Shown: piece after piece, positions 9,901-62,993 of the stretch
Layout: every line of letters begins with the position of its first letter
How positions within the stretch are numbered: the stretch's first letter is position 1
Source of the DNA: Neophaeotheca triangularis
Taxonomy: Eukaryota
Reading direction: 5' to 3'
Length of the DNA stretch: 64,000 nucleotides
NCBI GenBank assembly: GCA_054600435.1
Contig: BAAIJX010000038.1
Location: 62,001 to 126,000, forward strand
Made by a program: the position numbers and the translations under genes
The notes under the pieces: model-generated
What the model saw: only the letters and a program-made list of their open reading frames with translations
The model's database searches: none
Told to the model about the DNA's origin: nothing

Positions 9901-12900
9901 GTCGCAACTCCACGGCGAGCTGGCTGCCCTGAAGCGAGCATTGGCCTCGGTAATCAGAGCGCAGAACATAAATGGCACCGGGGATGCGGCAACATGGAAC
10001 AATATCTTGAACATCCGCCAGCGACTTAGCGAGTACTACCGCGCTTATATGGACTTTACGGCCCCTATTGTGGGCTTCATTGACGGCCTTTGTACGGGTC
10101 GAGATCTAATTCAACAAGCTGCACTCGATGAAGAGACAGAGTCCTCTGCGCTTGCGCTCTCGAAGGTCGTGCCTCTCCGCAACGCTTCTTTGGCAACATG
10201 GTTGTCCGATGACAGCTTCGTCTATGCTTTGCGCGAAAGTCGCACTCCACAGCAAGCGGTACATTGTCTCACGGCTCTGGCCGCTCGCTGCACTCTCAAG
10301 GCGCTGAGCAAGGCATCACTCGAGCTGCGAGATGCTGTCAACGATCAATTGTCGCGCATCTATCAGCTCTGGCGTAGCGAACTGTCCATCGACCAGAGGC
10401 AGGCATCTGCCAAAAGCAGCCTTTACCGTTACAAGGGAGATGCCGATGTCAACGAAGATGAGACCGCTGCTGAAGAGATGGAAGAGCTGTTCCCTAGCTA
10501 TGAACAGCAGTCCACCTCTCGACAAGCCGCAGAGGCCGGCTCGAAGAAGACGGCGCAGTCTCTTGCCCCGACCTTAGCCAGGATCCATCGAGCAATTTTT
10601 GCACCAGCAGAAGCGAATCCGGAAACGCTCTTGGCTTTGCTACAAAACACTCGTGAAGCCTGTGCTGACAGCTCGCTCAGCTCGAGCATCCCGGCAATGA
10701 TCGATCTACTGCAAGCCCAAGTCTCGCAACTCTCACCCGCGGAGCGACCGGAGCGAAGCTACAACATCTATCGAGATGCTAACATCCACGAAGCGACTAA
10801 GCTCGTGAACCTCGTCAACACGACTGTCAAACGGTTCCAGGAGCTGCACGCTGCTTGGCCTGAGCATGCCACACCTTTTGAAGTCTTGCGTACTTGCGAG
10901 CAAATACTGCAACTCAGTCATGCTTCGCCGGTAGCACGGCTACTGCAGCTCGTTGAAAAACTACATGGCGCTGTCAACGAGTGGCAGAAGGTCGCGAGCC
11001 GCGAATATAGCGTGTACACGATTCTGGAAGATCTGACGAGCTTGATAATCAGCTGGCGCCAGCTTGAGTTGTCAACCTGGGCTGGCTTGTTCGACCACGA
11101 AACAAGCCGTTGCGAGGAAGAGGTCAGCTCTTGGTGGTATGTGGCTTACGAAAGTATCATTGCTGTCCTCGAGAGCCTCGAAACTTCAGAAGATGCTCTG
11201 TGCCGCCACACTGCACAATTACTTGAGACGCTGAGTGGGCTCTTGACGACCAGCGGCCTGGGTGAATACACTTCGAGGCTCAACCTGTTACGAAGCTTCC
11301 GTGCTCATCTCGAGTCTCTGGCCACCGACAGGCCTGTCCTCGGGGTCGTCCACTCTGGGCTTTCGAACCTGATCGCTTATTACGGTCATTTCGAAGACCC
11401 CGCTAAGAAGGCTCTCGAGGACGGACAGGCGGGTTTGACGAAAGACATGAAGAGTGTCCTGCAGGTTGCTAGCTGGAAGGACCGGAACATCGAGACGCTG
11501 CGACAAAGCGCCAAGGCCTCTCACAAGAAACTCCTGAGAATGGTTCGGAAGTACCGAAATCTGCTGGGCCAACCCGTTCAGCCAATCATCTCCAGTGGCA
11601 TTCCGGAGATGAAGATCGACAAAGATTTGCCTTCTCAACTCCGAGTGCTGCAAGCCGAAGAAGACCTTGCCCGCAACGAAATTCAAATCACCCTCCCCGC
11701 CTGGACTGAAAGATCTGCGCGTTTCAAGAACGTAACTACAACGGCAGGCATGATTCAAAACAGGGCAACCTTAGCAATGGAGCCCATAGATGCATCCAAA
11801 CGTCTGGACGACTTCATGTCCAGTGTCACGTCAGGCATGGCTGAACTTCAGAAAGCCACGCCGGCAAACCTCACAGCGAAGAACAAGGCCTTCGTCGGAC
11901 ATCTCAAGACGAGGAAACGCCGACTTCTCGCCGATGTGTTGAAAGATCTTCGAGCCATGGGCTTCCAAGCAAGTCTGAGCGAAAATGCGCTGTCAAGACA
12001 AAGGTCGTTGAGTGTCGTACTCGCGGGCTTGAGTGCGCTCGACGCTTCCCGCTCTTCGAACCACCAACACGCGGCAGAGCACAATTTTCACAGGCTGCTT
12101 GATGCAATGCCCGCGGTGCGAGAAGTGGCGAGGCAACACTCTGACGACCTCACGCCCGCTGAGATTAGCCGGTGCGTCTCGTATCTGGAAAGCATGCTTC
12201 AGGTATCAGCCACACAGCGCTCCTCTCTCGCGGTACATGTGCTGGCGGCCAATAAGCTCGACAGCGTCATTGATACGATGATGGCGTTCAGCAGGTCTGG
12301 CAACGTGTGCATTGCTGAGCGAAGTGGAAAATTCACACTTTCATCCACGGAAATCTCTTCCCTCCTCACCGTTGTACGGGCCGTGCTGCAGCTTGTTGAG
12401 ATCCAGGCCAAGCTTGCAGGGTCTCAGTATTCTGCAGTTGAGCAAGGCATGACTCAATGGCTTGAAAGTACGGCTGCTTTGGCACTCCAACTCTCTGCGG
12501 CTCCTGAGCTGCCCAGCGGTCTTGACACTGATGGCAGGAAGAGCCTGCAGTTGCAGATCGGCGACCGCGTTCGCGATCTAGAAGGCAAAGTTACCGAGTG
12601 GTCTGGAAGCCACCCAGAGCTCGCGCCTCTGCTCTCGCAGCTACATGCATGGGTGCCTAGTTTCACTCCAGGGCATAGTCAGTTGCAGGCTACAGGACAG
12701 GTATCAATGAGTGACAACGACTGGCTTCAGAAGCTTCTCATTACACTCGATCACATGCTGGTCGCTGTGCAGAACATCAAACCTGCCGAGGAGGAACAAG
12801 ATTCAAGCCGAGCTACTTGGCTCCTCGACCAGCAGCAGGAAGCAAGCAAAGCGCTGCACCAACTTCAGGCAATGCGTGTACCGCGAGCTTTGGAACAGCT

Positions 12901-34634: not shown

Positions 34635-36430
34635 ATGTCGCTTTCCATGCCGGGTGCGCCCAACAGTGGGCTCTTCAAGCAGGGCTACCAAAAGTAAGGC
34701 CCCCTTCTCCACCAACGGGCCACCCTCACAAACAACCACATAACTAACAAACACCCCCCTACAGCTACGATGCCGAAGATGGTGCCGTCCTCCGCAACAT
34801 CGATGCCTGCCGCACAATTGCCTCGACCGTACAGACCTCCCTAGGCCCCTTTGGCCGCAACAAAATCGTCATCAACCACCTGCAGAAAATGATCCTCACA
34901 AACGACGCCGCAACCATCCTCCGTGAGCTAGAAGTCGTACACCCAGCCGCCAAGCTCCTGGTCATGGCCTCGCAACAACAAGAAGCAGAGATGGGCGACG
35001 CGACCAACATGGTCATCGTGCTGGCTGGAGAGCTCCTCCGCAAAGCTGAGGACTTGCTACGCATGGGTCTCAAGACCAGCGAGATTGTCAGTGGGTACGA
35101 GAAGGCTGGGCGAGCGGCGCTACAGTTTTTGGAGGACTTGGAAGTGGACTCTGTCGAGAACATTCGCGATCAGACCGAGTTGGCAAAGGCAATCCGCACC
35201 GTCATTGCTGCCAAGCAGGCCGGGAGTGAGGATTTTTTGGCCGGCTTGGTCGCCGAGGCGGTTTTGGCAGTCTTGCCCAAGAACCCGTTCAACTTCAATG
35301 TGGACAATGTGAGGGTTGTGAAGATTATGGGTGGGAGCTTGGAGCAGAGCAGGGTTGTCAAGGGTATGGTGTTCGGGCGTGAGCCGGCTGGGACTGTGAA
35401 GAAAGCTACCAAGTCCAAGGTGGGAGTTTTCAGCTGTCCAATCGACATCTCGCAGACGGAGACCAAGGGGACGGTTTTAATCAAGAACTCAAAGGAGCTT
35501 ATGGATTTTAGCAAGGGTGAGGAGGCGCAAATGGAGCAAGCGATCAAGGAGCTGCACGATTCGGGTATGAGGGTTGTGGTTGCTGGTGCTACTGTGGGCG
35601 AGCTGGCGATGCACTACCTCAACCGCTTTGGCATTTTGGTCATCAAGATTTTGTCAAAGTTCGAGCTCAGGCGATTGTGCAGTGTGTTGGGAGCCACACC
35701 GCTTGCTAGGCTTGGTGCGCCCATGCCGGAGGAGATGGGCAACATTGAGGTTGTCGAGACTCTCGAGATTGGCGGCGACAGGGTCACAGTGTTCAGACAG
35801 GAGAACGAGCAGACTCGCACGGCCACAATCGTGCTCAGAGGCGCCACCCAGAACCACCTCGAGGATATTGAGCGAGCAGTCGACGATGGCGTCAACGTTG
35901 TCAAGGCCATCACAAGAGACCCACGTCTGGTACCTGGCGCCGGTGCGTCCGAGATGCAGCTCATTGAGCGCATTACCGCCATGGGCGACAGGACACCAGG
36001 TCTGGCACAGTACGCGATAAGAAAGTACGCCGAAGCTTTCGAAGTCATCCCACGCACACTCGCCGAGTCAGCCGGTCTGGATGCCACGGAGGTGCTCGCC
36101 AAACTCTACACCGCCCACGCCGCAACACCCCCAAGCATAGGCACTTCCGCCAAAAAGCCCAGCAAAGATACCAAGGACTCCTCTTCAGACGAAGACTCCG
36201 ACGAGGAAGTCGCGACTCTGGGTGTCGATGTTGAGAATAACGATGGGTCGGGGACGTTGGACGCGGAGGACGAGGGCATTCTTGATCTCATGGTCGCGAA
36301 GAGCTGGGCTATCAAGCTGGCTACTGAGGCTGCAAGGACTGTGTTGAGTGTTGACCAGATTATTGTCGCCAGGCAGGCTGGTGGGCCTAAGCCGCCTGGT
36401 CCTAATCCGAACTGGGACGATGATGATTAA
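34635..36430 (+). CDS. CCT8: T-complex protein 1 subunit theta, 2 exons
   Basis: 'MSLSMPGAPNSGLFKQGY', intron 34694-34764, 'TSLGPFGRNK', 'TNDAATIL', 'GDATN', 'TETKGTVLIK', C-terminal 'AGGPKPPGPNPNWDDD'. Confidence 0.96.
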
Positions 36431-38660: not shown

Positions 38661-38916
38661 GGGATCATGACCTTTTGAGAGGTGTCAAGGCTGTAACAAT
38701 AAGGTATCGTACATGTATATGTGTCTTATTGTCAGGCATACTTTGGTATAGAAAGCGCATGTGACTTCGCGTGTGCCCCGCGTCTCCAACTTCACCTCTA
38801 ACATCACCCTCCAACTTGATAGTTCCCTCAGCTTTGACAAGACAACTGGCCCAATGTCTGAGCAACCTCAATACTCGTAGACTGAGTTGCTACGAGAGCT
38901 CATAGGGAGAATTACC

Positions 38917-40476
38917 ATGCCACCCCTAGCCTCAGTCTCAATACCAGCTCGGTCCCTCACCCCAGCTCACTCCTCACACTCAAGCAAGGGCAAAGCGCCC
39001 CTCCGCCCGATGCACCAACCGCGCCTATACGACGACGCGCCTCTTCCCATCGGACCGTCCCAAGATGCTCCCCGTGACTGCCGAATCACACAACGCTTCC
39101 TCGATAGCCGAACCTGCCAGGTCACCTACCGACTCAAAGTCGGCGACCTAGAAATTGGCGAAGTCAGCGTCGACGAGATCCTAGACTTTGTCAGCGCGCT
39201 TCATTTAGAGAGTTTCGAGAATAGGCAGTTTGAGGAGGAGCAAGAAGCCGAGGAGGTAGCGGCGGAGTTTGATCGGCAGGAACTAGAAGTTAAGGAGATA
39301 AGGCGGAAGGAGAGGTCTAAGACTAAGGGGACGGTAGTTTATGAGGAATTGGACGATTGGGAAGGGAATGAGAAGGGAGACACGGCGCAGACTATAAAGG
39401 AGAGGGAGGGGGCGGCGGCGAGGGCGGGCAGGTCTAGGCCGACTTATAGGCATCTTTACAAGGAGCCGAAGGAGCGTAGGAGGAGGAAGAGGGATCCGAT
39501 TACCGGTGAGCTACTGCCGCTGTCGCCTAGACCCGAGGATGGATTAGAGAAGAAGAAGCGGAGGAGGAGAAAGAGGCATCCTATCACCAACGAGCTAATG
39601 CCTTACGGGTGGACCTATAACCCGGACGAAGAGGCGTCAGGAAACGCCCAATCTGAGGTCTCAGATATACGAGAACTCAGTCTTGAGGACCGACAGACGA
39701 AACGCAGAAGACTGGAAAGTACCACTCCGTCAGTAAAGAGGTCGCGATCACCCATTGTCGCCTTGCCGTCGTCAGGACAGCCCAAAGCATCTGCTCGAGA
39801 CATCATCGAGATCGAGTCATCTGCTTCTGAATCTGAAGAATCAGAAGGGGAGAACGCAAATGCAAAAGGTACTCAGCCTCTGCGTAGAAGCGTAGGCGGC
39901 ATGCTAGCAGGAAAAACTGGCCCAACCGATGACAAATCCTCCTTGGAGCGAGACGTAGGACCTAGCTCCCAACAAAGTCGCAACACCATGACCTCTATCC
40001 TCCACCCTATACCCCAACAAATTGATGAGTCTTCGGAGTCGGAAGAAGACGAACTTTCCTCCAATCCTCTCCAAGCTTTCAAAAACGCCGCCACAACCGA
40101 AAAACGCCCAACACCGAGACCCTCAAGCCAGCTCTCCCAACCCGGGCATCGAACCTCCATCGCCCACCCCGTCGCATCAACCGCGAACAATGACCAAGCC
40201 ATCACCATCAACGACTCGTCCTCCAATAACTCCGGAGACGAGAACGTCGACGACGATAGCGAAGATTTGGGGGAAGGCGAATTCAACGTTGAAGCCATTC
40301 TGGCGCACCATCTTTCCGATCCGCGCACGCATCCTAAGGAGCTGGGGAAAAAGCCTGTAATGCTTTATCATGTAAAATGGGAGGGTTGGGAGGAGCCTAC
40401 TTGGGAGCCGGCGAGCTCTTTTGTGGATCCTGAGGTTGTTGGGGAATATGAGCGGGCGGTTGGGTTGTATAAGTAG
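38917..40476 (+). CDS. Chromodomain protein (C-terminal chromodomain)
   Basis: ATG 38917; C-terminal 'FNVEAILAH...YHVKWEGWEEPTWEP' chromodomain with aromatic-cage residues; basic NLS-like clusters and acidic tracts. Confidence 0.85.
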   Translation: MPPLASVSIPARSLTPAHSSHSSKGKAPLRPMHQPRLYDDAPLPIGPSQDAPRDCRITQRFLDSRTCQVTYRLKVGDLEIGEVSVDEILDFVSALHLESFENRQFEEEQEAEEVAAEFDRQELEVKEIRRKERSKTKGTVVYEELDDWEGNEKGDTAQTIKEREGAAARAGRSRPTYRHLYKEPKERRRRKRDPITGELLPLSPRPEDGLEKKKRRRRKRHPITNELMPYGWTYNPDEEASGNAQSEVSDIRELSLEDRQTKRRRLESTTPSVKRSRSPIVALPSSGQPKASARDIIEIESSASESEESEGENANAKGTQPLRRSVGGMLAGKTGPTDDKSSLERDVGPSSQQSRNTMTSILHPIPQQIDESSESEEDELSSNPLQAFKNAATTEKRPTPRPSSQLSQPGHRTSIAHPVASTANNDQAITINDSSSNNSGDENVDDDSEDLGEGEFNVEAILAHHLSDPRTHPKELGKKPVMLYHVKWEGWEEPTWEPASSFVDPEVVGEYERAVGLYK

Positions 40477-48592: not shown

Positions 48593-49961
48593 AGAAGCAA
48601 GGTCTCAAATCGCCATTCCAAGGAGGGAGTGGGACAATTGACAAGGTGTGGGAGTTTTTGAATGTTGGTTTCCTGGGGGCTGGTTGGCTGGCTGGCTGGC
48701 TTGCGGATTTGTCTTGTTGATGATTGGCGTAGCTACAGATTCGTGGGTTTGTGGTTCGGGATGGGAAGCAGTTTTTCGGGTTTTCGTCTTCGAAAAGGAA
48801 ATGTCGAGGGGGAACTTTGATCCCGTTTTAATTTTTTTCAGACACCGGCGGAATGGCTGGGCTGGGGTTTGCGAGGAGCCAACCGAGATTTTGTCGATGT
48901 TTGGAGGGTATGCCCTTTTGCGTTTGCGCAAGGCTGTGGATAGGGGGATTTCTTTCTTTATCGAAAGGCGTCATTATCCACTGTCGATGCTATGAAAGGG
49001 AAGACAAGGGAGGGATGCAATGGAATAGGGATGGATCGGGGGGTTTTGGACGGCCTCTGGTGGTCGAAGGTTCATTGCTAGGGATGGCGTCTTATCTGTC
49101 TGTTGCTTTGGGTCATTGGTGCTGGCTTGTCGCGGGGTTGGATGGATGTCACTCGTGGACGCTTCGTTAATTACTCTTGCCTGTTGCCTTGCCTTGCTTG
49201 CTTGCTTTTATCATGGGTCATCAAGAGGTGGGGGCAGAGTCAAGGGCGGGTTGTTGGGTTGGGATTAGTAGGGTTCGGTTGTGCGTTACTGGGTTAGGTC
49301 AGGTTAGGTAGTTTGATATGGGTTCAAAATGGGATTGCTTTTCTTTCCTTTTTGGTTGGTATTGGTTCATTTGAAGATTGCGCGGTTGATGTTATGTTGT
49401 GTTGATTCCCTGGGACTTACGAGATCTCTATTACCTTGTCCGTGGACTATATGAGAGTAATGTCCTCTACATCTATACGTAGTGAGGCTCTCTAAACGCT
49501 AGAGCGAGTAAAGTGAATATGAAACGTTCCTGCCTAATAGATAAGGCACGCACCCAACCCCAGAAAAAAAGCCAATTCGGCTAGGTAACCATCCTCCTGA
49601 CATCAAAACAGCAACAGATATTGGGCAAAACAGCGGCAAAACAGCGACGCTACGGGTACTCCCGTTGCGGTTTTGCTGTCCACACCTTGGTAACCTAAAG
49701 TAGTACAACAGTACCCTACCTTAGTAATCAGCGGCAAAGCTGGTCCCAGCGCTTCAAGCTAACCCTTTACGGCTTTGGGGATGTTGCAGCGTGTCTTCTG
49801 TAGATGCGAGCTCGCTACAACCACAGCTACGACTTCCAATCATCTCAAACTATACCCGCCTACACAATCCACACAACTCCATCTCCAAAGCCATTGCCCT
49901 GAGATTGACGACTTCGAGCTCGCGAAGATACCGTAATCGACACCACCGCCCTCCCTTCACA

Positions 49962-50846
49962 ATGGTACGTCAACCCCCATCCCATCTCCCATCTCCTTTT
50001 CCCGCGCACGCCGGCGGCCACGACAACCGCCCAAACTCCCCCAGCAACCTCTTCCCCCCCTCCATCCCAACACCTCACCCAACCACACCCAGCTAACCCC
50101 CCCCCGCGCTCACAGTCCGACGCCAACCCCGCCTCCCCGCCCACTTCGGCCACGAGCACAGGCGCGCGCCCGGCTTCCCCGAAACCTCCCGGCGGGCCCG
50201 CGACGGCTATCCGCCGCAAGGCCGCCGCCGATCGCGCCGACAAGGTTGCCAATGCCCGGCCTTCGAGCACTAGAGCTGCTGGCGCTGGCGGGAGTAGTAG
50301 TACTATGTTGCGTGAGTTTTTTGGATTTCTTTTTCTTTTCTTCTTTTCTTTTTTTTTGAGAGGGGGAGGGTTTTGGGTTTTGTTGGGGTTTGCGGTGTTG
50401 GGGTTTGCGGTGTTGGAAGCCTTGGGGGTGGGATAGGCGGGACTGGGATGGGTGGGGGTGGGGATGAGGGGGACTTTGGTTTTGAGGATGGGGTGGGTGG
50501 TGTTCAGGGCGAGGAGCCGGGGGAGGGGAGGAAATGCAAGAGATGGGATATTGAGGCTGGGGGAAAATGAGGATTTCGAGGGTTTGCGGTTTTGGTCAGA
50601 GGGTCTTTTGCTGACTTCTTCTATCACTCACACAGGTCTCTACACCGATGAGTCGCCCGGTTTGAAGGTCGATCCCTTTGTCGTCATGGTCTTGTCTATT
50701 GGCTTCATTATCAGTGTTGTCATGCTGCACAGTGAGTTCTATCTATCAATGCTTCTCGGATGGGAAGGGGAAAGGGGATGGAATGGTTGGATTGCTGACA
50801 CCCTCACCCAGTCCTCGCCAAGGTCTCGAAGCGCTTTTCGTCGTAG
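49962..50846 (+). CDS. SBH1: Protein translocon subunit Sec61 beta, 4 exons
   Basis: ATG-only first exon; introns 49965-50115, 50312-50635, 50732-50811; spliced product '...[54 protein letters not shown]'. Confidence 0.93.
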
Positions 50847-51991
50847 AAAAGCTAGTCTTACGGAGAAGGGAATGCGACAAGCTAGCGAATCGCAGCATCG
50901 TCAAGCGTGCCCTTGGGGACGCCGCGATTTCCCCAGTCTGGGGAGGAGGGAAACCCGTTGTCTTTTATTCGGGTTTGGCTAGAAGATCAATCCTCTTACT
51001 GCGCGATGTCGGTACAGCAGAACTCCCGTGTGGTGAGGGAGGCAAGGCGTTATTTGGACTTTGACATGGCGGAGGAAAGACTTCGCCCCAGCGGGTTTGG
51101 GGGTGGAGAGTAGCTTTCGTCTATATCTTGGTGTACTATTATACATCTGCTGGTGATGAATTTTGGGTGGTCTTTCTTGTGTTACACATTCAAATGTGAG
51201 GATTTCTGGTTATCATCTGGAACGAGATGCCGACAGCTCCTCGCCCAGGTTCGTAGTATTGATACAGGGAAGAGTGTATTGCATGGCGAGGCTTCTGAAC
51301 AAATTACACGTTACATGTCGCCAGCTACGTTCTACCGGCACGCAACCCATAAACAATACCAAACTGTAGAGATTGATTTCCTGATCAAAATCCGCCCAAC
51401 AGAGTCCAATGCGTCCAACAGCGCGGAGTTGATACCAACTAGAGTTAGTTTAACCCCTCCCCTGACGTCGGACTCACGAATTAATGGACGATTAAATCGA
51501 ATCCCGACGGCAGAGTCGAAGTTACATTTACAATGCTCCAATCCCGATGGCGAAGAGTCTATAGCAGGCTGTCGAAACTGCAGGTCTTAATGCATTTGAT
51601 TAGGCTTATTGGGAGGCAGGTGGCTGGGCAACTTGGCTCAAGAGACGTGATCGGGGGAACGAGTTTTCGCCGGGCCTTTTTCGCGACTTGCCATCATTAT
51701 GTACTTCTCGAGGTCTCTTTACCAGCTACATAGTAATTGGCGAGTTGATGCCCGTAGCCTTGTTGTCCCTGATTTGAATCTGGTGAATCCCGCTTCGCTA
51801 AGGTGCTGTTTTCTCGGAATTGATTTTTTTGACAATATAGTTTTAAAACCAGCTTGACTTCCAACGGTCGCGTGGTCCCAATCTGTTGCCCCCTAACTCA
51901 AGGTGACTCGGCCTGGTCTTGGAAAAAAAAGAGACGGAGAGACAGCGATGAAATGTGAGACATAAAAGCGCCAAGATATGCAATTGACTAA

Positions 51992-54111
51992 CTATTCGTC
52001 CTCGTCCGGCAGTTCCTCGCCGTACATGGTCTGCTCGTGGAAACGTTGGTGTATATGCTGAAGGGTATATCGGTAGCGGTGTGGTTCTCGAAGGCAGCCT
52101 TGCGGGTGCTCAAAGTTTTCGAGATCCGTGAAGCGATTGAGAAGTGACCACAGCGACGACCAACACGACTGCTCTGTTGTTTCAAAGCAGAGTGGCCCCC
52201 CCACCCCCACTCCGTACTCTGAAGCGACCAGACCCGACTTGAACATGGCCGATGTGCTCGGGTTGTAGCCTCTTGAAGATCCCTCGGCGAGGAGTGTGCG
52301 CTGCGCCTCGGTCGGTTTGTAGTCGTCGGTGGGAATCACAGCGCATCTGAAGGGCAGTGTTGTCGCGTCAGGGCCTCCGACATCCCAAAGCATCAGGCGA
52401 GGTTCGAAGCTTGCATCTAGCCGGCGGAAGGTTGCGGCGGACATGTTTGGTCCGGCGAAACCAGCCTCAGCATGCTGTGTATAGTAGGAGATTGGTACGA
52501 GCTCAGTTTGCGAGGGCAGGTGGTGGCAGCATTTGGGAGGCTTCGCGTGCTGGAAGAAAGCCAAGCTTTCCTCCGGAGTCCATCGATAGCGACAGTACCC
52601 AAAGTCTCCGAGTGGATGGCTGGTAGCGAGGACCACGAGAAGGCCGGCACGTCTATGCAGGCGTCAGCAAATCACACCACGAACGCTCAAGGGACCCGCG
52701 CTTACTTCCTAGCGCATTCGCTCATCAGCTGGTAGAAAAAGGTGCGGTGGCCTCGCCTCATCGCAACGGCCGACACATGACGCCCGTGAGTGGCAGACGG
52801 CGTCTTGCCGGCGAGTTCCGCAGGCTGCGGTTCATCCTCCTCGGGCTCCTGCCGATAGTTGCGCAGAGGTCGCTCACCGATACGGCGAGGGCTCGGGGTA
52901 TCTGCCACGATGCGTTCGATCAACTTGAGCCAAGCGCCATCTCCATCTAGCACCACACGAAATTGCGCCAGATGTGGGAAACGGCTGAAATCCGTCTCCT
53001 TGTCCTGCTGTGTGTACCATTCGTCCGGCAGCTCTTTCTCGGGGATGAAGTAGATGACCGTTCGGATCGTCGGCGGTCCGGTAGAAAAGGTGAAGTGAAA
53101 CCAGAGAAAATCGAATCTGTACACCTGTCGTCAGCGCCAGGAGTCGCGGCCTCATACCAGCAGACTTGCACACCTATCGAACGCCGTAAAATAGTGCCGG
53201 CGGAGCGACCTATCACCGCGTGCGAGAGTGACCCTATTCAGACGCGAGTTCTCGGATCGCACGGTCGAGTCGATTTTGTGCTGCACGTAGTACTGCTTGC
53301 CGTCCAAGAGGATCTTGAGATCTGCGAGGCTGGGCTGATGGCCCACGAAGTCTATCTGTAACCGTGAAGTTGCGTCATGCCTTGACCAGCGGATGATCTC
53401 CAGTACCGCTTCGTACGCAGTGGCTTGGTCGGACGAGTCTGCCGGTCGAATGAATCTGGTGTCAGTGGTAAGGTGGGGCTCCCAATCGCCGTGCTCAACT
53501 CCCGTCCAAGGGTTGATATAAGAGTCCCCCCCACACGCATGCTCTTGAATCCGGCGAACTGCCTCGGTCACCAGTGCCAAAGGTACTCTGTACGGCGCAT
53601 TGCATTGATCGATGCCACCGTAAGCACTTGGCGGAAGACGGCATTGGCGGCTGATTGTGACCGCAACTTCACGCTTCCCGGAAGGGTCGTCCGTGTAGGC
53701 TGTAGTTTTTTCACGTAGTGCTGCTGCCACCTGATAGTAGTTCGGTATGATGTCGACAAAGGTTGTGTCGGCCGAGTTCATTCCGATGTAGAAGGCGACG
53801 TGCTGTCGCTGGCAAACAGGCGTGATATATCGTTGGTCCCCTGCTCTTTCCCCCACGCTGCTCTTGACGTCGAACAAAAGGAGCTCGCTTGCATCTGTGT
53901 GTCGTCGGTTGTGCAGGTCATAGAACCGGCTGGCGTAGCTTTCGCCGTCTTGGTAAGAGTTGCTGCAGTCTAAAGCGCCGTCAGCAAGGCCAAACTCAAA
54001 CGCCCTCACAACGAACGAAGAGTGCTTGAGTAACGAGAAGACGTCTGCCTCATAGGAAGCGCCATGGCATTGCAGAATGCGAGGACCGCCTTGTTCGAGA
54101 GGTTGGACCAT
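51992..54111 (-). CDS. Putative tandem PD-(D/E)xK (restriction-endonuclease-fold) protein, ~669 aa, 3 exons
   Basis: Introns 53117-53173 and 52653-52705 join three ORF-track fragments in frame. Repeat 1: YEAD..ADG..FDVKSS..VAFYIG..DIIP. Repeat 2: YEAV..LADL..VQHK..FDFLWF..YFIP. Repeat 3 is degenerate: LGDF..LMLWD..AVIP. Gene model is well supported; function is inferred. Confidence 0.6.
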
Positions 54112-54588
54112 CGCTTTGCGGCCTGTAGAGCTAGAGGGTCGGCGGCGACATGTGTGAAAACGATGAGGCAAGTCGAAACGCCGGAACAAACAACATTTGC
54201 GCAGATCCGGCTACGCGCATAAAAGGCCTGTAGTCAGCAGACAGGTGGGCTCGTGCGCAAGCATGATAGGAGGCTACGCTGAAAGAGATTTGGAGAGGGG
54301 AAGCTGAAAGCTGGCGTGATATTGAGTTCAAAGACTTCTCTATTTGCAAACTAACTGCGAAATGTCGAGCCTTGCTTGACCCGATCGAGCTAGCCTTGCC
54401 CAATCATGCCAATCAACCATATCTGCCCAATCGTTGCCGACGATGATCGAATGATCAAACCAAAGGTGGCCAACCAAACTTGGGGAAAACTGTTAGCATT
54501 CCGTGACGGGATAACATTATCGATGCTGGGGCACGAACCTTCACGTACCATGTGTTTGCTCTTGCGGGTTGTGGGAACGGGCTAGCGG

Positions 54589-55395
54589 CTACTGAGCCCA
54601 AACAATACCGAACCGGGCCTTGAACATGTCCTTCACGTGCTCGAACCTCTGGGCCGGTGTCGTTTTGGCGAAGTTCGTCGCATCCGCCAACTCATCGACC
54701 CAGCGCCATCCACGACGCCCGTCCGGCTGCTCGGTCCACGCCGACGTTGGCACGTCCGGCATGTTGATGTCCTTGGCGCGGAAGACGACATCGTCGGAGC
54801 CGGCGTACCGCATTTTCACAAGGAACTTGATCTTCTTGCTTTTGACGTGGAGGTACTGTTCGACGCGAACTTCGATGCCGACCCTGCCTGGCGTGGGGCT
54901 GCCGTGCATGTCCGTGACGACTTTGCCGGCGGAGTCCAGCATGGTGATGAGCTCCTCAGCAACCACCATCCATTTGCCATCATCGGCGACCTTGCTGTTG
55001 TTGCTGTTGTTGTTGGTGGTGCTGGTGTTTCCCTTCGCCCCGGCTTCCCCTTTGCCATCCCCGATCTCAGCAACATCAGAGTATCCGCCGTCGTCCTCGT
55101 TCCTCTTGCGCTTGGTGCCGCGTTGCTCTTGAGTCGTGTCCGAGTCCGTGGATGGAGAGACGTGCGAGGGGACTCCGGTGCCGTAAAGGCCAAAGTCTTT
55201 GGTGAGGTTGCCCGGCTTCATGGCTGACGAAGGCGGGGTGGCCGGTCCAAGGGGGCTAGTTGCGTTGACGTCGGTGGTGGAGGGGGAGGCGTTGGAGGGT
55301 TTGCCGGTGGCTTGGTTGATAGTGGTGGAGGAAGAGTTGGTGGGGGGTTTGACGGTGGAGGGTTTGGCGGTGGGGGGGTTGGTGGTGGTAGACAT
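54589..55395 (-). CDS. Orphan 268-aa protein: S/T/P-rich N-terminus, NLS-like KRKR, globular C-terminal domain
   Basis: Intronless ORF with ATG, C/G-ending codon bias and a protein-like C-terminus. Confidence 0.68.
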   Translation of the reverse strand: MSTTTNPPTAKPSTVKPPTNSSSTTINQATGKPSNASPSTTDVNATSPLGPATPPSSAMKPGNLTKDFGLYGTGVPSHVSPSTDSDTTQEQRGTKRKRNEDDGGYSDVAEIGDGKGEAGAKGNTSTTNNNSNNSKVADDGKWMVVAEELITMLDSAGKVVTDMHGSPTPGRVGIEVRVEQYLHVKSKKIKFLVKMRYAGSDDVVFRAKDINMPDVPTSAWTEQPDGRRGWRWVDELADATNFAKTTPAQRFEHVKDMFKARFGIVWAQ

Positions 55396-56060
55396 GTCGT
55401 GATGAATGGTTGTTGATAAGAGTGCAAGAAGCTGAAGGTGTAGTGATGAGAGAAGATGAGGAAATTGGAGAGAGTGGACGGCTAGTAATAGCTCGCAGGT
55501 GTTCTTACTTTGTACCGTGTCGCATCACAGATGCGTGAAGGGTGAAGCGCTGTCTCGGACGGTAAGGAACATGGGTTGTGCTGCCTGAGACGATGATACT
55601 CCCAGCAATCGCATGGCAGCGGTATTGGGGGGATGGTTTAGAGACGTGCCGCCTTCGTGCCGGTATAGGATTACTTCTTGAGTTATGTAGCTGCCTGGAA
55701 GTCGTTGTAACCAAAGCAATAATGCGAAGGCAGCCTCGAGAGAAATAGCGAGGAAGGTGAGGTCAGATGTCAGGATGTTGGAAGATTAGAACACAGTCAT
55801 CACCCGATCTCGCCGAGCTTCCCGAGCACGTGCCGAGCTACTCGCACGCTCGGCTAAGCAAATCCGAACAACTGCAACCCTCCTCAACACTATACAACAT
55901 AACAAATGATCCAGGAACAGACCCTGCGAAAGGCCTCAATTTCCCCTAGCTATGCGCTCGTGATGTCAAGAGGCTATCACCCGGCTCGTTAGTTCCACTC
56001 GGCCTTGTCTCTAGCGACTGAGTTGGTGGCTTACCTTCTGCTTGCTTCGTCGGATATCAT

Positions 56061-56627
56061 CTAATCGAGGTCCATCATGTCTTCTGACCAGTCGGCACTA
56101 CTCGGATCTTTGTCGTCCTCTGGATCGCTGGCTGTTTCGTCGGCCTCCTCTACCACGGTCGCGCCCATGTCCATATCAACGTCCGACAATTCCTCTCCGA
56201 CCCCGTCGTCTGGTTCATGTCGCGTCTCTGCCTTCTCGCCATCTCCCTTGGCGTCCACCACCGAATTCTCATCCTGACCCTGCTCTTCGCACTCGGAATC
56301 TGGCGTTGTGCTTGAAGCATCATCATCATCTTCCTCCTCGGCGTCCCCACCATACTCTTCGCTGCTGCTTGCTGCACTGCTGCTGTCACTTCCGCAACTT
56401 TCAGTCAGACACGAGACTAGCTTGTGGAGAGTTGCCGACAACTGAAGAGCATGCATGCGCGCTTTTTTGGCTTCCGCATAAGGTATCTCGTCCAAGATTT
56501 CGTCGATACCCAGGGCGTCGAGGTCTGTGATGAGGCTCGTGACTTTTGCAGCGGGGGTTGTCTTGAGTGTAGTCTTTTTCGTTGGAGGTTTTGCGTTCGT
56601 TTTCGGCATGTCGCACGGTGTGGACAT
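56061..56627 (-). CDS. Orphan ~188-aa protein: basic N-terminus, short helical core, long D/E-rich tail
   Basis: ORF with ATGs at 56627 and 56609; 'LITDLDALGIDEILDEIPY...LHKLVSCL' followed by an acidic tail. Confidence 0.55.
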   Translation of the reverse strand: MSTPCDMPKTNAKPPTKKTTLKTTPAAKVTSLITDLDALGIDEILDEIPYAEAKKARMHALQLSATLHKLVSCLTESCGSDSSSAASSSEEYGGDAEEEDDDDASSTTPDSECEEQGQDENSVVDAKGDGEKAETRHEPDDGVGEELSDVDMDMGATVVEEADETASDPEDDKDPSSADWSEDMMDLD

Positions 56628-57166
56628 CTCGAAGGCTGTAGCTGTCGTTTAGTGAGAGCACCTGCGAATGAGCATTGACATCGCGGTAGAAGAGCAGCGC
56701 CAAACGTGAAGGCGTTCTTCTGCAGCGTTTTTGTTGTTTCACATTCTCGCAAACGCAAGTCTCATCCATTGCCCGAAATATTGGTAGGGGGCGAGATTCG
56801 GCATAAGTTATAACTGATAGGGTGACTGGTAGTTTAAGACCAGACAGCAGCTGCGTATCTCGGCACATTTTTGCTTTGGTCTGTAGTAGATGCGGTAGAT
56901 AGAGGAGGAAGCTCGATACTTATATAAGGGCAGGACGTTGTAATACTGTTAAACTTGATCGAGTAGCATAGCTATATCATCGACAGTACTAGTTATACAA
57001 AGCGGGTGCCGTAGCTTAGATCCTCTCGAAGCGTTTACATTAATGCTAGAAAAAAAAAATTAACTATACACAGGCGCTTCCGGAAAGAAGGTGCAAGATT
57101 AGGTATAGTGCATAAGATGATGTTCAGAATAACTATCCCGAAGGGCGGACAAAAAAGTTGCAACGA

Positions 57167-57239
57167 TAGTTCTGCTGGGTGTCGAACCCAGGACCTTGCC
57201 CGTGTGAAGGGCATATCATAACCACTAGACTACAGAACT
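57167..57239 (-). tRNA. tRNA-Val (anticodon CAC), intronless
   Basis: Reverse complement folds as a cloverleaf: acceptor AGTTCTG/CAGAACT, anticodon arm TGCCC-TTCACAC-GGGCA, T-arm CTGGG-TTCGACA-CCCAG, discriminator A; T6 Pol III terminator at 57151-57156. Confidence 0.93.
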
Positions 57240-57641: not shown

Positions 57642-60146
57642 TCAAGCTGGAGCAAACTTGTAGATGCCGAAGTAAGGGTTTCCGTGAACGGGTCGCGTTA
57701 GACGGCCCTTGGGCGCGCGGACGTACTTGGGTCCCTCGCCGGCGGGCTCGCTAGCCTTATGAAAGCCTGGGAGAGCTTTCGAAGCCTTCCTGTCCTGAAT
57801 ACCCGCTCCATTCATCCTGCGATTGGCGTTCACTCTGTCGTTGTCAGCTGTAGATGGATCGGTCAAGACATCGGCTGCGCGGTCGCTAGGATGATGAAAG
57901 TTTTTGAGGGCTTTCGGAGCCCTGCTGTCCGACGCGTCCTCCGTAGCCTTCCTTTTGTGATTGGTCGTAGCCTTGCTCTTTCGATTGGCCTCCAGTACGT
58001 CGTCGGCGACATCTCGACCCTCGCAACTACTATGCTGATGGAACGCGAGCTCGTAGTTGTCCGCGAATGGCAAATTGCAACCCGTGCAGCGGATGGCGGC
58101 GACCTCGGGTCCAATTTTTTCGTGTCTGTGGCTGGCGCTATGCCTGACCAATAGGCCGATCGTTGCTGCACTCTCGCACTTGAGGCCAGCATCGTTCCAT
58201 CTGCACTTCAGTGTCTTGTCCCGGCGCCCTTCAAACACTACAGGACAGGCGGTATTGCCTTGGACGGTAGCGCACACGGCGTGCTTTTCCGCCCAATAGT
58301 AGGAGGGAAAAGTCTGGCCGCATCTCAAGCGGCATGGGATACCCACGGTCTCGTTACTGTGGTTCTTTGACAGGTGAGACTGCAACCCGACCCCGATCCA
58401 GTCACAGATACCAAAGCTGGACCAAGGGCAAGTCTCACGAGCAGCAGACGCCGCACCGTTCCGCTTCGATTCTTCCTGGGCCTGGTCGTCCTGAGCAGCA
58501 ACGCGAGCAACCTGCTCCTCGCTGGGGTGTGAACACTCGTCAGTGAGGTGGAGAGCGAGCTGGTAGACATCTGCGAAGTGCAGAGAGCATCCATCGCAAG
58601 CTATACCTTGCCCACCTTGCTCGTGTGCAGTTTGATGATCCGGCTCTCGGGACAGGTTATACTCGTCGCAATGTACACCCGGAGTCGCGTGCCATCTACA
58701 GGAGTCGCGCTTGGCTTTCCTCCTCTTGTAAGCTTCTTTGCAGTAATTGTCTGCGTTGACCCTGAAATCTTTGGGGGCATGTCTGTAGTGCTTTTCTGCC
58801 AGGCTGTAGGTCGGCAAGTACTTGCCGCAAGCAAGCGGGCATGGAACACCAACTACTTCGTGCTTGTGCTTTATCGCAAGGTGTAAAGTCAGGGTTCTTT
58901 CTGAGGTGTGCAGATGTGTGCAGCCGGTTACTGGCTTCCAAGGGCATGGTCTTGTCAAGCGGAACAATTCCTGCCGTGCGGCGATGGAGTCGGGTTTGGC
59001 AGTGCGAGTCGGCGCATCAACTATGGATTCACCGCCATCTTCGTCTATTGGGGAGTCATCATCATCGTCTGTTGGGTGAGTGTCGGTACTAGTCGAAGGC
59101 GCCATGAGAGACCGCCGCAAGGGATCGTCGTCGTCTGTGCTGATTCCGCCAAATTCGTCGACCAAATCTGGAGGGAGCCAAGACTTTTCGCTGGCGCGTT
59201 GATGATCGAGTCGTGCGATAGCACGCGCCCGTTCCTGCTCGCGGAACCCTTCCCGGAGCTCTTGCCGGTGATGGTATAGTCTTACGGCAGCTCGACGCTC
59301 GCCGTGAGTTTGTGAACCAGTTCCATAGGTATGAGCACTGTCAGGCTCGCGACGGGGGCGACGACAGAATGTTGCGGGGAGCTTGCGAGGGATAGCTTTC
59401 TGGGTGGCATGGTCCTGGGCTGCTTCGACGGCCGGCAGAGCTGTTGTGCCTTCGTGATTGGCGGCGAGCATGGACCATTTGACCAACGCATTCGCAAGCT
59501 TGTGATCGCGCTCAACGTTTGAAGGCTCGTCGATATCGAGCGGACTGATTGCTCCAGCGGCTATCAAGGGAATCCAATGTGTCTTCTCCCGCCAGATGCG
59601 GAACTTATCTGTAACGCGTCGGTATGCCTTGACGGCGGCGCTGTGGCGCACAAGTCGACCTTGCTGCTGTGTCAAAAGGCGGGCAACTTCGGACCATGGA
59701 AGTTGCTGCTCGACTTTCAAAGAGATCAGGAGACGATCGAATTCGCATGGGTACATGGCCGTCTCGTCTCCTTCTCCGTCTTCCTCTCCGTCTTCCTGCC
59801 AGGCTGCTACCCCATCATACTCCCCATCATACTCCTCGTCATACTCCCCGTCATACTCCCCATCATACTCCCCATCATACTCCCCATCATCTTCCTCTGC
59901 TTCCTGCCAGGCCGCCATCTCGTCATCCTCCTCATCAAACTCCCCGTCATCTTCCTCTCCGCCGTTCACCTCATGGTAATCCCCAACTTTACCTGCGCCG
60001 ACGACACCTCCTTGGGACTGACGCATCTCACGATGCCTGAGACTGATGGCGCTGTCGAAGGGAAGGATGTTTTGTGATTGGGCGGTCGGTTCCTGGTGAC
60101 CTGTCTCGGGTACCGCTCGGCCAATAGCGGACTTGTTGCGTTCCAT
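57642..60146 (-). CDS. 834-aa protein: acidic repeat, Myb/SANT-like domain, two copies of a 4-finger C2H2/C2HC-like zinc module
   Basis: 'FDRLLISLKVEQQLPWSEVARLL' helix-turn-helix-like segment; repeated CPW-x4/5-C..H-x3-H, C-x3-C..KH, CRW..C..H-x3-H, C-x2-C..FAD-x-Y-x-LA-x-H-x4-C. The 5' end may extend through upstream exons. Confidence 0.72.
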   Translation of the reverse strand: MERNKSAIGRAVPETGHQEPTAQSQNILPFDSAISLRHREMRQSQGGVVGAGKVGDYHEVNGGEEDDGEFDEEDDEMAAWQEAEEDDGEYDGEYDGEYDGEYDEEYDGEYDGVAAWQEDGEEDGEGDETAMYPCEFDRLLISLKVEQQLPWSEVARLLTQQQGRLVRHSAAVKAYRRVTDKFRIWREKTHWIPLIAAGAISPLDIDEPSNVERDHKLANALVKWSMLAANHEGTTALPAVEAAQDHATQKAIPRKLPATFCRRPRREPDSAHTYGTGSQTHGERRAAVRLYHHRQELREGFREQERARAIARLDHQRASEKSWLPPDLVDEFGGISTDDDDPLRRSLMAPSTSTDTHPTDDDDDSPIDEDGGESIVDAPTRTAKPDSIAARQELFRLTRPCPWKPVTGCTHLHTSERTLTLHLAIKHKHEVVGVPCPLACGKYLPTYSLAEKHYRHAPKDFRVNADNYCKEAYKRRKAKRDSCRWHATPGVHCDEYNLSREPDHQTAHEQGGQGIACDGCSLHFADVYQLALHLTDECSHPSEEQVARVAAQDDQAQEESKRNGAASAARETCPWSSFGICDWIGVGLQSHLSKNHSNETVGIPCRLRCGQTFPSYYWAEKHAVCATVQGNTACPVVFEGRRDKTLKCRWNDAGLKCESAATIGLLVRHSASHRHEKIGPEVAAIRCTGCNLPFADNYELAFHQHSSCEGRDVADDVLEANRKSKATTNHKRKATEDASDSRAPKALKNFHHPSDRAADVLTDPSTADNDRVNANRRMNGAGIQDRKASKALPGFHKASEPAGEGPKYVRAPKGRLTRPVHGNPYFGIYKFAPA
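59810..59890. repeat. Coding 12-bp minisatellite (CCCCATCATACT consensus, ~6.7 copies) encoding (EYDG)n
   Basis: Read directly; flanked by duplicated AAWQE-coding segments. Confidence 0.88.
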
Positions 60147-60585
60147 GTCGGTGGTTGCGCCCGACGATGAGATGGAGCTTGTTCAGCAGAGGCAGCCAAG
60201 GTGGAGAGAGACATTACTCCAACTTCAAAGCGTGTCGGGGCGAGTTGTCGTAACGCGTCGCTTCGGTGAGAGGTGAATAGGCTGGTCATGCAGCAACAAC
60301 ACATCATCCCATCGCGGCATTCAACATATTTTCGTGGCCACCATACTGTTCTGTGTATGGGGATGCCATCATCTCGACGCTGGGATTGGCAGCGTGTCGC
60401 ACGGTCAGGAACTCAGGATAGCAGTGGAAATATTTGGGAAAACAGAACAGTACAGTGGAGGAGCTAACATTGCTGATGTCGGGTGTAAATACGGCAGAAA
60501 ACAAATCCCACGCGAGCCCGGGTCGAATCGGAAAGTGTAGCGAGCTTGTCATATGCGCAACAATGCCCATCGATGTCCTGCATGT

Positions 60586-62993
60586 TCACGTCTCGTTGGT
60601 GTCCATCTCTGACCAGCGTACCAATTCCGCTGCTAATTTTGGGTCTTCACGAATATCTCCGGGTTCGCCGAACTCTGTAAGCTGGAGGCGACCCTCTTTC
60701 ACGAGAGGCATGTAGAAATGGAAATCTTTCCACATCCGGAACCTCTCGCACGCGGCCTCATATATCAGTTTCAGGTCGTCCCCTGTTGCTATCCTCATAT
60801 TATGAGGGCTGCGTGGATCCAGACGGATGAGCCGAGCTACTTCAAACCAGGTCTTTTGGCTCTTCACTCTGTATGCGATGATCAGGCGGTCCATGTGGTT
60901 TGGCATCATATCTAAGCGAGCACGCGTTCTCAATGAGCCTGCACCCGATGTTTCGTGGCTCGCAGCCAGCATTCCCTGGTACGTAGAGCCTGCGGAAGAG
61001 GCACTGGGCCGAGGTGTAGCAGGCGGCGCTGCGCTCGCCCTCTGTTTCGACCCCTTCGCGCCTTTCGTGCTTCCCATGACACGAGCGGGGTCGCCTCCTT
61101 CGCGAAGCAATGACCATCTTATCAGGCGCGCGCGGACCTGGCGATTTTCGATACCGGTGGACAACATCCGGTCAAGCTCGTCAGGAGTCACCTTGTCTGC
61201 GCTCACCATGTCGCGGTAGTAATTCAGGTCAACCCAAGCATTGAATCGGTCGACGGCGCCAGTAAAGTAACTGCGAACGGCTGACGCCTTGACCATGGCG
61301 CCCTTTTGCAATCGCACATGGCGAGCTACGACGTGCCACTTCAGCCGTTTTTCCACTCTGTACTTGACGATCATGCGATCATCCCTTGTCGGCTGGCACG
61401 TGTCCAAACTGTCCGTCGTACGAAGAGCGGGGACGGCGCAAGAGTCGGAGCAGTCGTCACCACCCTCTTCACTACTCTCTTCGACAAACTCCATGGCTTC
61501 TTCGCCGACCATGCCCGCGTGATCAGTTGACTGCACGCCCCGGTCAAGTGCGTCTACAGGGCTTTCGACTCGTCGTCCGGGACTCTCGGCGTGAGGAACG
61601 ATGTGAGTCGGGGCGCTTCCCGAGCCAGACAGCTGGCTGGTCGTGAAACGCTCTTCAAAAGGCCCAAAAGGCTCGACGCCCGTGGTCCTGGCACGCGGGC
61701 TGCCACGGTGGCGCGCCCATCCATCGCTGGCCGCGCCACTATGCTTGTGGGAAGGACGCTGAAGTTGCGCTGGGGCCGGGACTCTTGCACGTTTGTGGCC
61801 ACGACGAAGTGGTGCGAACGGCCCCGGATCTACGCTCTCATCGAGTGAATGGGTAGGCCCGCGTTTCCGTGATCTCGTTGGCGGCTTCGAAGCCTCGCCG
61901 GGGTTGTCGCGTGAGCGTGGCAGACCGGGCAAGGTGTCGGAGAATATGTCTGCTCCAAAAGTTGCGTCTCCGTGTCCTTCCCTGGAGGAAAAACCGGCGG
62001 GCAAAGTGTCGGAGAATATGTCTGCGTCGAAGGTTCCGTTTCCATCCGTCTCCTCTGAACGAGACGTCAGAGGCTCACTTGGCGACATGTCTTTTGAGGG
62101 ATCGGGTCTCGGAACCGGCGGCCGTGAGAGTGGAGGAAGCGCCGTTGACTCCTGCGCTTGAACCAGCGCAGCTCGGAGCGAGGCTGACAAACAGTCAGCT
62201 AGGTACTATATACGTGCGGTCCCGTCACCTTGGCTATTTGTGCAGATACCTGAACTTTCCAGAATAGTCTTGGAGGCGGACTGCAGCTCCACTGCCGCCG
62301 GACCAGGGACGCATGTTTCGGAAAGCGTGCGCAGGTCGTTGCTTATCAAAAGCACGAAGAAGAGAGCAGCCGTGTCTCGAAGGCGGCTGTGCTCTACGAC
62401 TTCGCCGGGGAGGTCTTTCACAGGCCCTAATTTCATCCCCTTCGAGGGCAGCACGGCAGCTCCGGTGCGGTCATCGACCAGGCATGCGGCCAATGTCAGC
62501 GAATGAAGACTAGTCAACGTGAAACAAGACCTACTATCGAGACGACGGAGAGCCCGCGAACCGGCAGTGTGTGCACGAGTGAATTGACTGGTTAGCTCGT
62601 CCTCGCCCTCAAGCGCCATTCTGTGACAAAGCACATTTTGGTGCCACCAAACCGAGAACGCCCCGGGCATTGCTCTTGGTACTGGGCGCGGAAGCGATTC
62701 CCCCAACGCCGCCGGCGTGAAAAGGACTTCTCTCGCCTTGATCACGCTCGCGTTAGCAGGGCCCAGACATGCTGCCTCTTCGGGTCGAAGCATTGGGCAA
62801 AGGTCGTGGATCTGCGTCTCAGGGTCAGTGCATCGCTACTCAGGTCGTCCTACGGGTGTCTTACAATTGTCAATAGATCCGGATCCTGCTTGGCTCCGTG
62901 AAGGGAGCGCAAGTCGCTGTCGCTCAGACCATCTCCTTCGATGCGTTCCAGGATTTTGCGCAATTGCGCTAGACTCGGTTTCCCTGTTTCCAT
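60586..62993 (-). CDS. ~762-aa protein with two copies of the same Myb/SANT-like domain, 3 exons
   Basis: ATG 62993 (gcgATGg); introns 62812-62864 (GTAAGA...CACTGAC...CAG) and 62184-62249 (GTATCT...GCTGAC...CAG) join ORFs 62850-63176, 62206-62793 and 60586-62190 in frame. Confidence 0.66.

Follow-up and report, generated by a model that had tools for sequence, protein, structure and literature searches.

The genome of Neophaeotheca triangularis, a black yeast and, according to taxonomy look-up, a Dothideomycete, was analysed over a stretch of 64,000 nucleotides (GenBank assembly GCA_054600435.1, contig BAAIJX010000038.1, positions 62,001 to 126,000 of the forward strand), here called the window. 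Between positions 51992 and 54111 of the window the minus strand carries a protein-coding gene of three exons and two GT..AG introns; all coordinates given for this gene and its parts refer to the minus strand. The spliced coding sequence (CDS) of 2010 nt encodes 669 amino acids (aa), and in the homology search the product proved letter for letter identical to P0001, annotated as 'hypothetical protein MBLNU230_g4866t1 [Neophaeotheca triangularis]'. We favour, at about even chances, the view that this protein is a single chain with two centres of the PD-(D/E)xK nuclease type, one canonical and one of the Mrr-like D..QxK layout, followed by a C-terminal α/β region devoid of the catalytic lysine.

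Three stop-free stretches (53152..54210, 52702..53130 and 51992..52663) are joined by the introns. Exon 1 (53174..54111) starts with the ATG at 54111 and encodes aa 1-312 plus two bases of codon 313; over these 312 aa the identity to P0001 is 100%. Intron 1 (53117..53173) is 57 nt long, reads GTGTGC...ACAG and contains a CTGAC branch-like site. Exon 2 (52706..53116) supplies the last base of codon 313, aa 314-449 and two bases of codon 450, and is followed by intron 2 (52653..52705; 53 nt, GTAAGC...ATAG, TGCTGAC branch-like site). Exon 3 (51992..52652) provides the last base of codon 450, aa 451-669 and the stop codon TAG (51994..51992). If intron 1 is retained, the frame stops after ..FDRCASLLV. 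An earlier note on this DNA, made from its letters, had proposed that two introns join three open reading frame (ORF) fragments into a protein of about 669 aa, and both the coordinates and the length were exact.

The splice junctions were checked against homologues. No gap interrupts the spliced protein at either junction when 28 full-length homologues are aligned. P0018, P0025 and P0008 show odd insertions exactly at junction 1, which are probably unspliced introns in the gene calls, and many database fragments of the family end at residue ~313 or start at ~457-466, that is, at the intron sites. The metagenomic homologue L001 (40% identity) is without an intron at the intron 1 site, where it reads continuously ..DIDRFDFLFYQF.., and has an intron of its own at the same codon position and in the same phase as intron 2. 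When L001 was compared with the window by tblastx, the similarity stopped at 53173 and restarted at 53118, then stopped at 52705 and restarted at 52654. Judged by this comparison with homologues, the gene model is right and both junctions are supported. L001 (8001-10057) also has an apparent further intron, with a frame change near 9825-9845, inside the part corresponding to unit 3 described below.

Along the protein three units can be delimited. Residue counts for them are taken from a 150-row alignment and refer to the sequences covering each column. Unit 1 (aa 15-130; 53722..54069) contains E21, E39, D44, D81-V-K83 and Q101 together with the strands VAFYIGM and FVDIIPN, a canonical E..D..DxK arrangement; the codon of D44 lies at 53982..53980 and those of D81-V-K83 at 53871..53863. 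E21 is found in 88/93, E39 in 89/94, D44 in 91/93, K83 in 97/98, Q101 in 96/96, P123 in 100/101 and N124 in 98/100 sequences, and position 81 is D in 88 and E in 8 of 97. The set E21/E39/D44/[DE]81/K83 is jointly kept in 84 of the 88 homologues covering it. An insert (aa 136-235; 53407..53706) with conserved R175, P177, Y198, N200-P-W-T203, W210 and P212 leads to unit 2 (aa 236-345; 53020..53406), which spans intron 1 and comprises a helix with E238, Q259-P260, D264, Q277-H-K279 and the strands FDFLWFHF and VIYFIPE. Its layout is D..QxK with 13 residues from D to Q, D264 being encoded at 53322..53320 and Q277-H-K279 at 53283..53275. Conservation amounts to 92/96 for D264, 85/93 for Q277 (with E in another 4), 91/94 for K279, 40/45 for D315, 54/56 for P338 and 49/54 for E339. 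The acidic residue of the first helix is kept less strictly, position 238 being E in 41 and D in 19 of 91, and the set D264/[QE]277/K279 occurs jointly in 85/90. Conservation of the motif residues in these two units is 89-100%, as compared to a mean column identity of 27% in the alignment of 28 homologues, and about 57 positions are near-invariant in the family.

The linker that follows is otherwise variable, has a pI of 9.9 and carries a conserved basic motif, P-x-P-R-x-x-G-x-R-P-x-R (aa 387-398; 52861..52896), with P389 in 56/59, R390 in 55/59, R395 in 57/61, P396 in 56/61 and R398 in 55/61 sequences; it might possibly serve nuclear localisation or contact the minor groove. Unit 3 (aa 436-565; 52307..52749) spans intron 2 and contains GLLVVLA, G-D466, Y472, W474, G517-P518, R527, RLMLW-D540-V-G-G-x-D545 and AVIP-x-D-D560. 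Here D466 is conserved in 72/78, G543 in 66/77, D545 in 64/80, P557 in 77/81 and D560 in 73/80 sequences, and position 540 is D in 63 and N in 12 of 79. A lysine of the catalytic type was not found in unit 3: D466/D540/K542 occur together in 0/71 sequences, and a K or R anywhere in 538-546 in 10/77. The C-terminal region (aa 566-669; 51995..52306) has the invariant residues Y596 and P633. Taken as a whole, the C-terminal half (aa ~436-669) keeps several Asp and never the lysine, and a third active site is less likely here than a non-nuclease partner domain with a structural, regulatory or substrate-binding role.

All motif strings listed in the earlier note are present, and its residue-by-residue description, with two complete sets and a third lacking the lysine, was correct; conservation of these residues was looked for among homologues and found in the proportions given above for the two sets. 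The strings lie at 38-45 (FEFGLADG), 79-84 (LFDVKS) and 121-124 (IIPN) in unit 1, at 262-266 (LADLK), 276-279 (VQHK), 314-319 (FDFLWF) and 335-339 (YFIPE) in unit 2, and at 465-469 (GDFGY), 538-543 (LWDVGG) and 555-560 (VIPTDD) in unit 3. In PMC3424549 the PD-(D/E)xK superfamily is defined by an Asp opening core strand 2 and by (D/E)xK on strand 3; a Glu from helix 1 often contributes, and the last strand is very hydrophobic. By this definition, the corresponding elements are E21 (predicted to lie on a helix), FEFGLA-D44, LLLF-D81-V-K83 and VAFYIGM in unit 1, and E238, LA-D264, YYV-Q277-H-K279 and FDFLWFHF in unit 2. At the sequence level the superfamily motif is present in unit 1 (D44, D81-x-K83) and in unit 2 (D264, Q277-x-K279) and is missing from unit 3, and a first-helix acidic residue is firmly kept in unit 1 and more weakly in unit 2. 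The motif residues presumably lie on core strands 2 and 3. A crude Chou-Fasman average over the 28 homologues placed helices and strands compatibly with the PD-(D/E)xK fold.

The earlier note had also described the three units as tandem repeats of one restriction-endonuclease-like module, and for this no sequence or profile comparison reached significance. BLASTP of the protein against itself (E<=100) returned the diagonal only. In hhalign comparisons of sub-alignments, unit 1 versus unit 2 gave E 0.25-0.9 and unit 2 versus unit 3 E 0.23-0.96; best was unit 1 versus unit 3, with E 0.006-0.009 and a probability of 4-6%. Hidden Markov models (HMMs) of the units found no match below E 0.01 in the segments of the other units, the best being unit 3 on unit 1 with E 0.036. 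We consider it unlikely that the protein arose by internal duplication into three homologous repeats, of which two stayed active and one was inactivated by loss of the lysine, the whole forming a single-chain pseudo-trimer; this version overlaps with the two-centre reading that we favour. The order of elements, namely helix, (A/G)D, a hydrophobic strand ending in D and a strand ending in I-P, is the same in all three parts, and the HMM of unit 3 scores 10/92 unit 1 segments below E 1. The best local profile match between units 1 and 3 always comes in the same register, pairing R62..LLLFDVKS with R527..RLMLWDVGG, in runs that are not independent of each other (E 0.009 and 0.006, and 0.19 with other alignments). 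The weak alignment of units 2 and 3, however, places RLMLWD on FDFLWF and not on the QxK strand, so that the two hints of repetition contradict each other: one equates RLMLWD with the DxK strand of unit 1, the other with FDFLWF of unit 2. Moreover, the distance from (A/G)D to the next conserved Asp is unequal, with 37, 13 and 74 residues in units 1, 2 and 3, and none of the self-comparisons goes beyond a hhalign probability of 6%.

Several results weigh against a PD-(D/E)xK assignment altogether. Pfam gave 0 matches for the three exon pieces (E<=1), and for sets of 28, 14 and 118 family members it gave no recurrent family and, among the families listed, none of the PD-(D/E)xK kind. At E<=10 the scan of the 118 members returned 26 families with one member each, and among the 25 of these that were listed there was no PD-(D/E)xK family. 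PADLOC returned 0 matches, PHROGs single-member matches only (E>=0.16), and the search of PDB sequences and profiles with the protein and four profiles nothing better than E 0.57; what matched in the PDB was unrelated or, in the case of a Cas4, did not cover the right part. The whole protein is acidic (pI 6.0), unlike an expected DNA binder, and short motifs of acidic residues and lysine can arise in other folds. In hhalign the units reached only non-significant values against a profile of the Mrr catalytic domain (E 0.04-0.8), as did controls taken from HsdR, McrC and a type III Res-like domain (E 0.03-0.4). What speaks for the assignment besides the motifs is a weak language-model lead: in the ESM Atlas, searched with the whole protein and with aa 236-350, the nearest named clusters were all of the PD-(D/E)xK kind, with scores of 0.85-0.89; scores under the Atlas's own 0.9 line count as leads and not as evidence, and a third of shuffled proteins give ten concordant matches. 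The clusters were PDDEXK_16, PDDEXK_5, NOV_C, DpnI and 'Restriction endonuclease (Fragment)', the PDDEXK_5 lead being weak, with the Pfam family in 15-18% of cluster members. Profile similarity to known member families was found in none of Pfam, PADLOC, PHROGs and PDB, and the earlier note was right that no named fungal family could be given for the protein, no curated family having matched. The Cas4 match (4r5q, to the unit 2 profile, E 1.2) was rejected, as it aligned the N-terminal region and not the catalytic strands. This aligned region is presumably the carrier of the C-P-R motif of Cas4.

These negative searches speak for a different fold or chemistry, in which the conserved Glu, Asp, Lys and Gln would belong to another hydrolase or transferase or to a metal or ligand site and the likeness to PD-(D/E)xK would be coincidental. 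No profile method ties the family to any PD-(D/E)xK family, the superfamily motif is short and degenerate, and unit 3 and the insert aa 136-235 hold many invariant Pro, Trp, Tyr and Asp without a counterpart in the superfamily. Nevertheless, in two separate regions of the chain the order of the residues and the predicted elements that carry them are as expected and the spacing is typical, and the language-model neighbours all belong to the PD-(D/E)xK clan. PD-(D/E)xK families are, as PMC3424549 describes, known for escaping profile searches. Against the Mrr_cat profile, the three control proteins, which are known members of other families of the superfamily, did not surpass units 1 and 2, so that this hhalign test has no power either way. 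We regard a different fold or chemistry as unlikely, to the same degree as the three-repeat version.

A second alternative accepts a PD-(D/E)xK-like fold and supposes that it is catalytically dead, with a binding or scaffolding role like that of RecC, the Rpb5 N-terminal domain or Sen15. Inactive members of the superfamily are common (PMC3424549), unit 3 clearly lacks the lysine and the protein is acidic overall. Inactive homologues, however, usually lose their catalytic residues, whereas here complete sets are kept in 84/88 and 85/90 sequences, and they persist despite a median end branch of 0.92 changes per column in the family tree. We hold a dead binder to be very improbable.

Returning to the two-centre reading, one likeness in motif is to the catalytic domain of the restriction enzyme Mrr. 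The alignment of 20 catalytic stretches behind the Mrr_cat profile used above draws on E. coli mrr and on 14 genes from plasmids that carry the annotation 'restriction endonuclease'. This alignment has the motif E..D..Q-x-K-R, with gDgGIDg ... yvQaKR throughout, and QxK is therefore a natural active variant. The fungal protein shares D..QxK with it: LA-D264 ... fVQHK of unit 2 and aDGAidC of unit 1 resemble gDgGIDg ... yvQaKR, and hhalign aligned them in the expected register (aDGAidC on gDgGIDg, fVQHK on yvQaKR), without significance. In PMC3424549 the Mrr catalytic domain PF04471 is grouped with eukaryotic DUF2034. Neither PF04471 (Mrr_cat) nor PF10356 (DUF2034) was matched by hmmscan in the 118 members, even at E<=10, and the hhalign values of E 0.04-0.34 are no better than those of unrelated superfamily members. 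With no HMM match and hhalign at the level of the controls, the fungal protein is not a member of Mrr_cat by the tests available.

The spacing of 13 residues between D264 and Q277 and of 23 between E21 and D44 is similar to that of archaeal Hjc. Small members of the Hjc/Mrr type show the same order of elements, with the Glu on helix 1, the Asp at the start of strand 2, (D/E/Q)xK on strand 3 and a hydrophobic last strand (PMC3424549). The fungal protein differs from them by the absence of a match to any curated profile, by two motif sets in one chain, by the 37-residue insert between D44 and D81 of unit 1, and by the 100-aa insert and the large C-terminal half, which have no counterpart.

If the fold is as proposed, the product would be a phosphodiesterase that depends on metal and acts on nucleic acid, one chain holding two separate catalytic centres. 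In unit 1 (aa ~15-130), E21 would sit on the first helix, D44 at the start of a strand and D81-x-K83 on the next strand, with strongly hydrophobic strands after it. Unit 2 (aa ~236-345) would use the D..QxK variant (D264, Q277, K279), as in Mrr. Each of the two units would bind a divalent metal through its Asp/Glu (or Gln) residues, and the lysine would activate or position the attacking water. Small enzymes of the PD-(D/E)xK fold normally need to form a dimer or tetramer. With two sites per chain, a monomer could do without such assembly and still cleave either both strands or two arms of a branched substrate, and the C-terminal half might act as a non-catalytic partner, like the subunits of I-Ssp6803I that do not contact DNA or like the middle domain of Upx. 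The generic mechanism with metal and lysine-bound water is described in PMC3384342. We infer fold, catalysis, substrate and the division of labour between the units from the residue patterns set out above.

The family was delimited by an exhaustive phmmer search of 1.84 billion representatives: 309 proteins scored E<=1e-3, 236 of them E<=1e-10 and 138 E<=1e-30. A source name is attached to 20 of the 30 further representatives looked up and to 5 of 9 matches from the homology search. The named members, all 'hypothetical' or 'uncharacterized', come from Hortaea, Elasticomyces, Friedmanniomyces, Vermiconidia, Aureobasidium, Zymoseptoria, Zasmidium, Ramularia, Bipolaris, Alternaria, Didymosphaeria, Paraconiothyrium, Microthyrium and a Dothideomycetes sp., as well as from Bacidia and Calogaya, which are lichen-forming Lecanoromycetes according to taxonomy look-up. 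The named genera other than Neophaeotheca, Bacidia and Calogaya we take to be Dothideomycetes. Among its named members the family is restricted to the Pezizomycotina.

In a maximum-likelihood tree of 30 members the paralogy is seen to be old. The clade of P0001 (support 100/98) contains a copy from Hortaea and one from Elasticomyces, and a second copy from each genus falls into a different clade (100/100); the paralogues predate the split of the two genera. Aureobasidium melanogenum appears in three separate places of the tree. With a median end branch of 0.92 changes per column in this tree, the family evolves fast. Some members (P0003, P0028, P0160, P0004 and P0006) are annotated with long N- or C-terminal extensions of up to 1100 aa, which may be gene-model fusions or real extra regions; they hold no Pfam domain except for a sub-threshold NPR3 on P0003.

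Further relatives were sought with little return. Pattern matches numbered 590 in viral contigs and, with P0001 as query, 20 in prokaryotic genome contigs, of which 0 were confirmed in either set; of 197 in metagenome contigs, 1 was confirmed, namely L001. In plasmids, tblastn gave 3 matches, all with E>=2 and under unrelated genes, and the E. coli K-12 chromosome searched with the exon 1 profile gave nothing. The unit 2 profile, run against 5.8 billion proteins of 73-254 aa, yielded 8 matches, none of them named and none with a Pfam domain; the 5 strongest (E<=1.4e-9) match family sequence and the other 3 (E 0.003-0.65) cover 19% of the query. In phages, tblastn gave a single match (E 6), which was set aside as chance; it lies in a type III Res-like ORF, before the nuclease motif. 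The phage record concerned, MT838753.1 (1-2007), is an unannotated scaffold, found only through this chance match. What it encodes looks like a type III restriction Res subunit without its N-terminal third and ends in a ..D..ETKG nuclease motif. Within the literature searched, which did not extend to supplementary files, six accessions or locus tags of family members were not mentioned, and no paper was found that joins 'restriction endonuclease-like' with 'Pezizomycotina'.

The locus itself is an ordinary chromosomal one, with normal G+C and housekeeping neighbours. A mobile-element context was rejected, since flanking terminal repeats were not found around the gene and base composition and neighbours are ordinary; Rfam returned no match in window positions 49000-57000. 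Between L001 and the window there is no synteny, the neighbours of L001 being without similarity to those in the window. Directly upstream, on the same strand (54589-55524, minus), lies a 311-aa frame with an N-terminal half rich in Ser, Thr, Pro and Asn and without a Pfam match, which contains three imperfect, G-rich direct repeats of 55 nt at 55275-55392. A tRNA-Val (CAC) gene (57167-57239, minus) stands between this gene and an ORF of 846 aa (57645-60182, minus). The latter and the neighbouring ORF of 539 aa (60589-62205, minus) have no Pfam match and have in common a domain of ~100 aa (BLASTP E 9e-16 and 1e-12), present twice in the 539-aa ORF; the 846-aa ORF also shows C2H2-like Cys/His patterns. 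Farther away, a 4913-aa open frame (905-15646, plus) matches midasin (AAA_5 and Midasin lid domains), the frame at 34748-36430 (plus) encodes a TCP-1/cpn60 chaperonin subunit, and the ORF at 38881-40476 (plus) has a C-terminus just under the chromo-domain cut-off (25.0 versus 25.1 bits).

Among known systems, Upx, CinB, SPOK and Mrr come closest, as architectural analogies and not as relatives. Upx is likewise one monomeric chain with two nuclease domains of the PD-(D/E)xK type, one canonical and one atypical, and a further regulatory domain; it differs in being bacterial, of about 143 kDa and of another domain order, and no sequence relation was found. The paper on Upx says that dual-nuclease variants 'remain underexplored'. 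A defence role for the fungal protein would be speculation. The SPOK spore-killers of Podospora are fungal and patchily distributed and have a predicted PD-(D/E)xK domain, and a K240A exchange abolishes killing (PMC6660238). They differ by a coiled coil, by a single nuclease domain with a QxxxY motif and by a kinase domain (same source); the present family has no kinase domain, and similarity to SPOK was not detected, no sequence comparison aimed at it having been made. CinB of Wolbachia carries tandem nuclease domains, nuc1 and nuc2, in one polypeptide (bioRxiv 10.1101/2025.03.04.641471); unlike the fungal protein it is the bacterial toxin of a toxin-antidote operon, and neither a sequence relation nor a partner gene at the fungal locus was seen. 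I-Ssp6803I, finally, is a small PD-(D/E)xK homing endonuclease acting as a tetramer, in which only two subunits touch the DNA and two are structural (PMC3384342). Its Pfam family is PDDEXK_5, the one to which the weak Atlas lead mentioned above points. The tetramer may serve as a precedent for active and non-catalytic units working together, although the subunits are identical and not fused, diverged domains (same source).

If fold and activity are as proposed, these genes would constitute a fungal nuclease family lying outside the domain libraries Pfam, PADLOC and PHROGs, with an architecture, two differing PD-(D/E)xK centres plus a lysine-less region, that is rare even among bacteria and has received little study there. 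Two active units fused to a degenerate partner would then make a monomer that does the work of the dimers or tetramers of restriction enzymes and junction resolvases. Old paralogues, long end branches and the lack of synteny between the two loci seen are compatible with lineage-restricted, fast-diversifying, multi-copy, single-chain two-site nucleases engaged in genome conflict, whether they serve a selfish element as its toxin, take part in allorecognition or ward off invading DNA or mycoviruses; we rate this extension as quite unlikely. Were it true, the family would parallel, in eukaryotes, the single-protein nuclease defences of bacteria (for example Upx) or the killing domain of SPOK. Should the fold differ, the about 57 near-invariant positions would still mark a well-defined orphan family. 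The family occurs in key plant pathogens and extremotolerant black yeasts (Zymoseptoria, Bipolaris, Alternaria, Ramularia, Hortaea and Aureobasidium), and it is multi-copy and fast-evolving, as conflict-related genes are.

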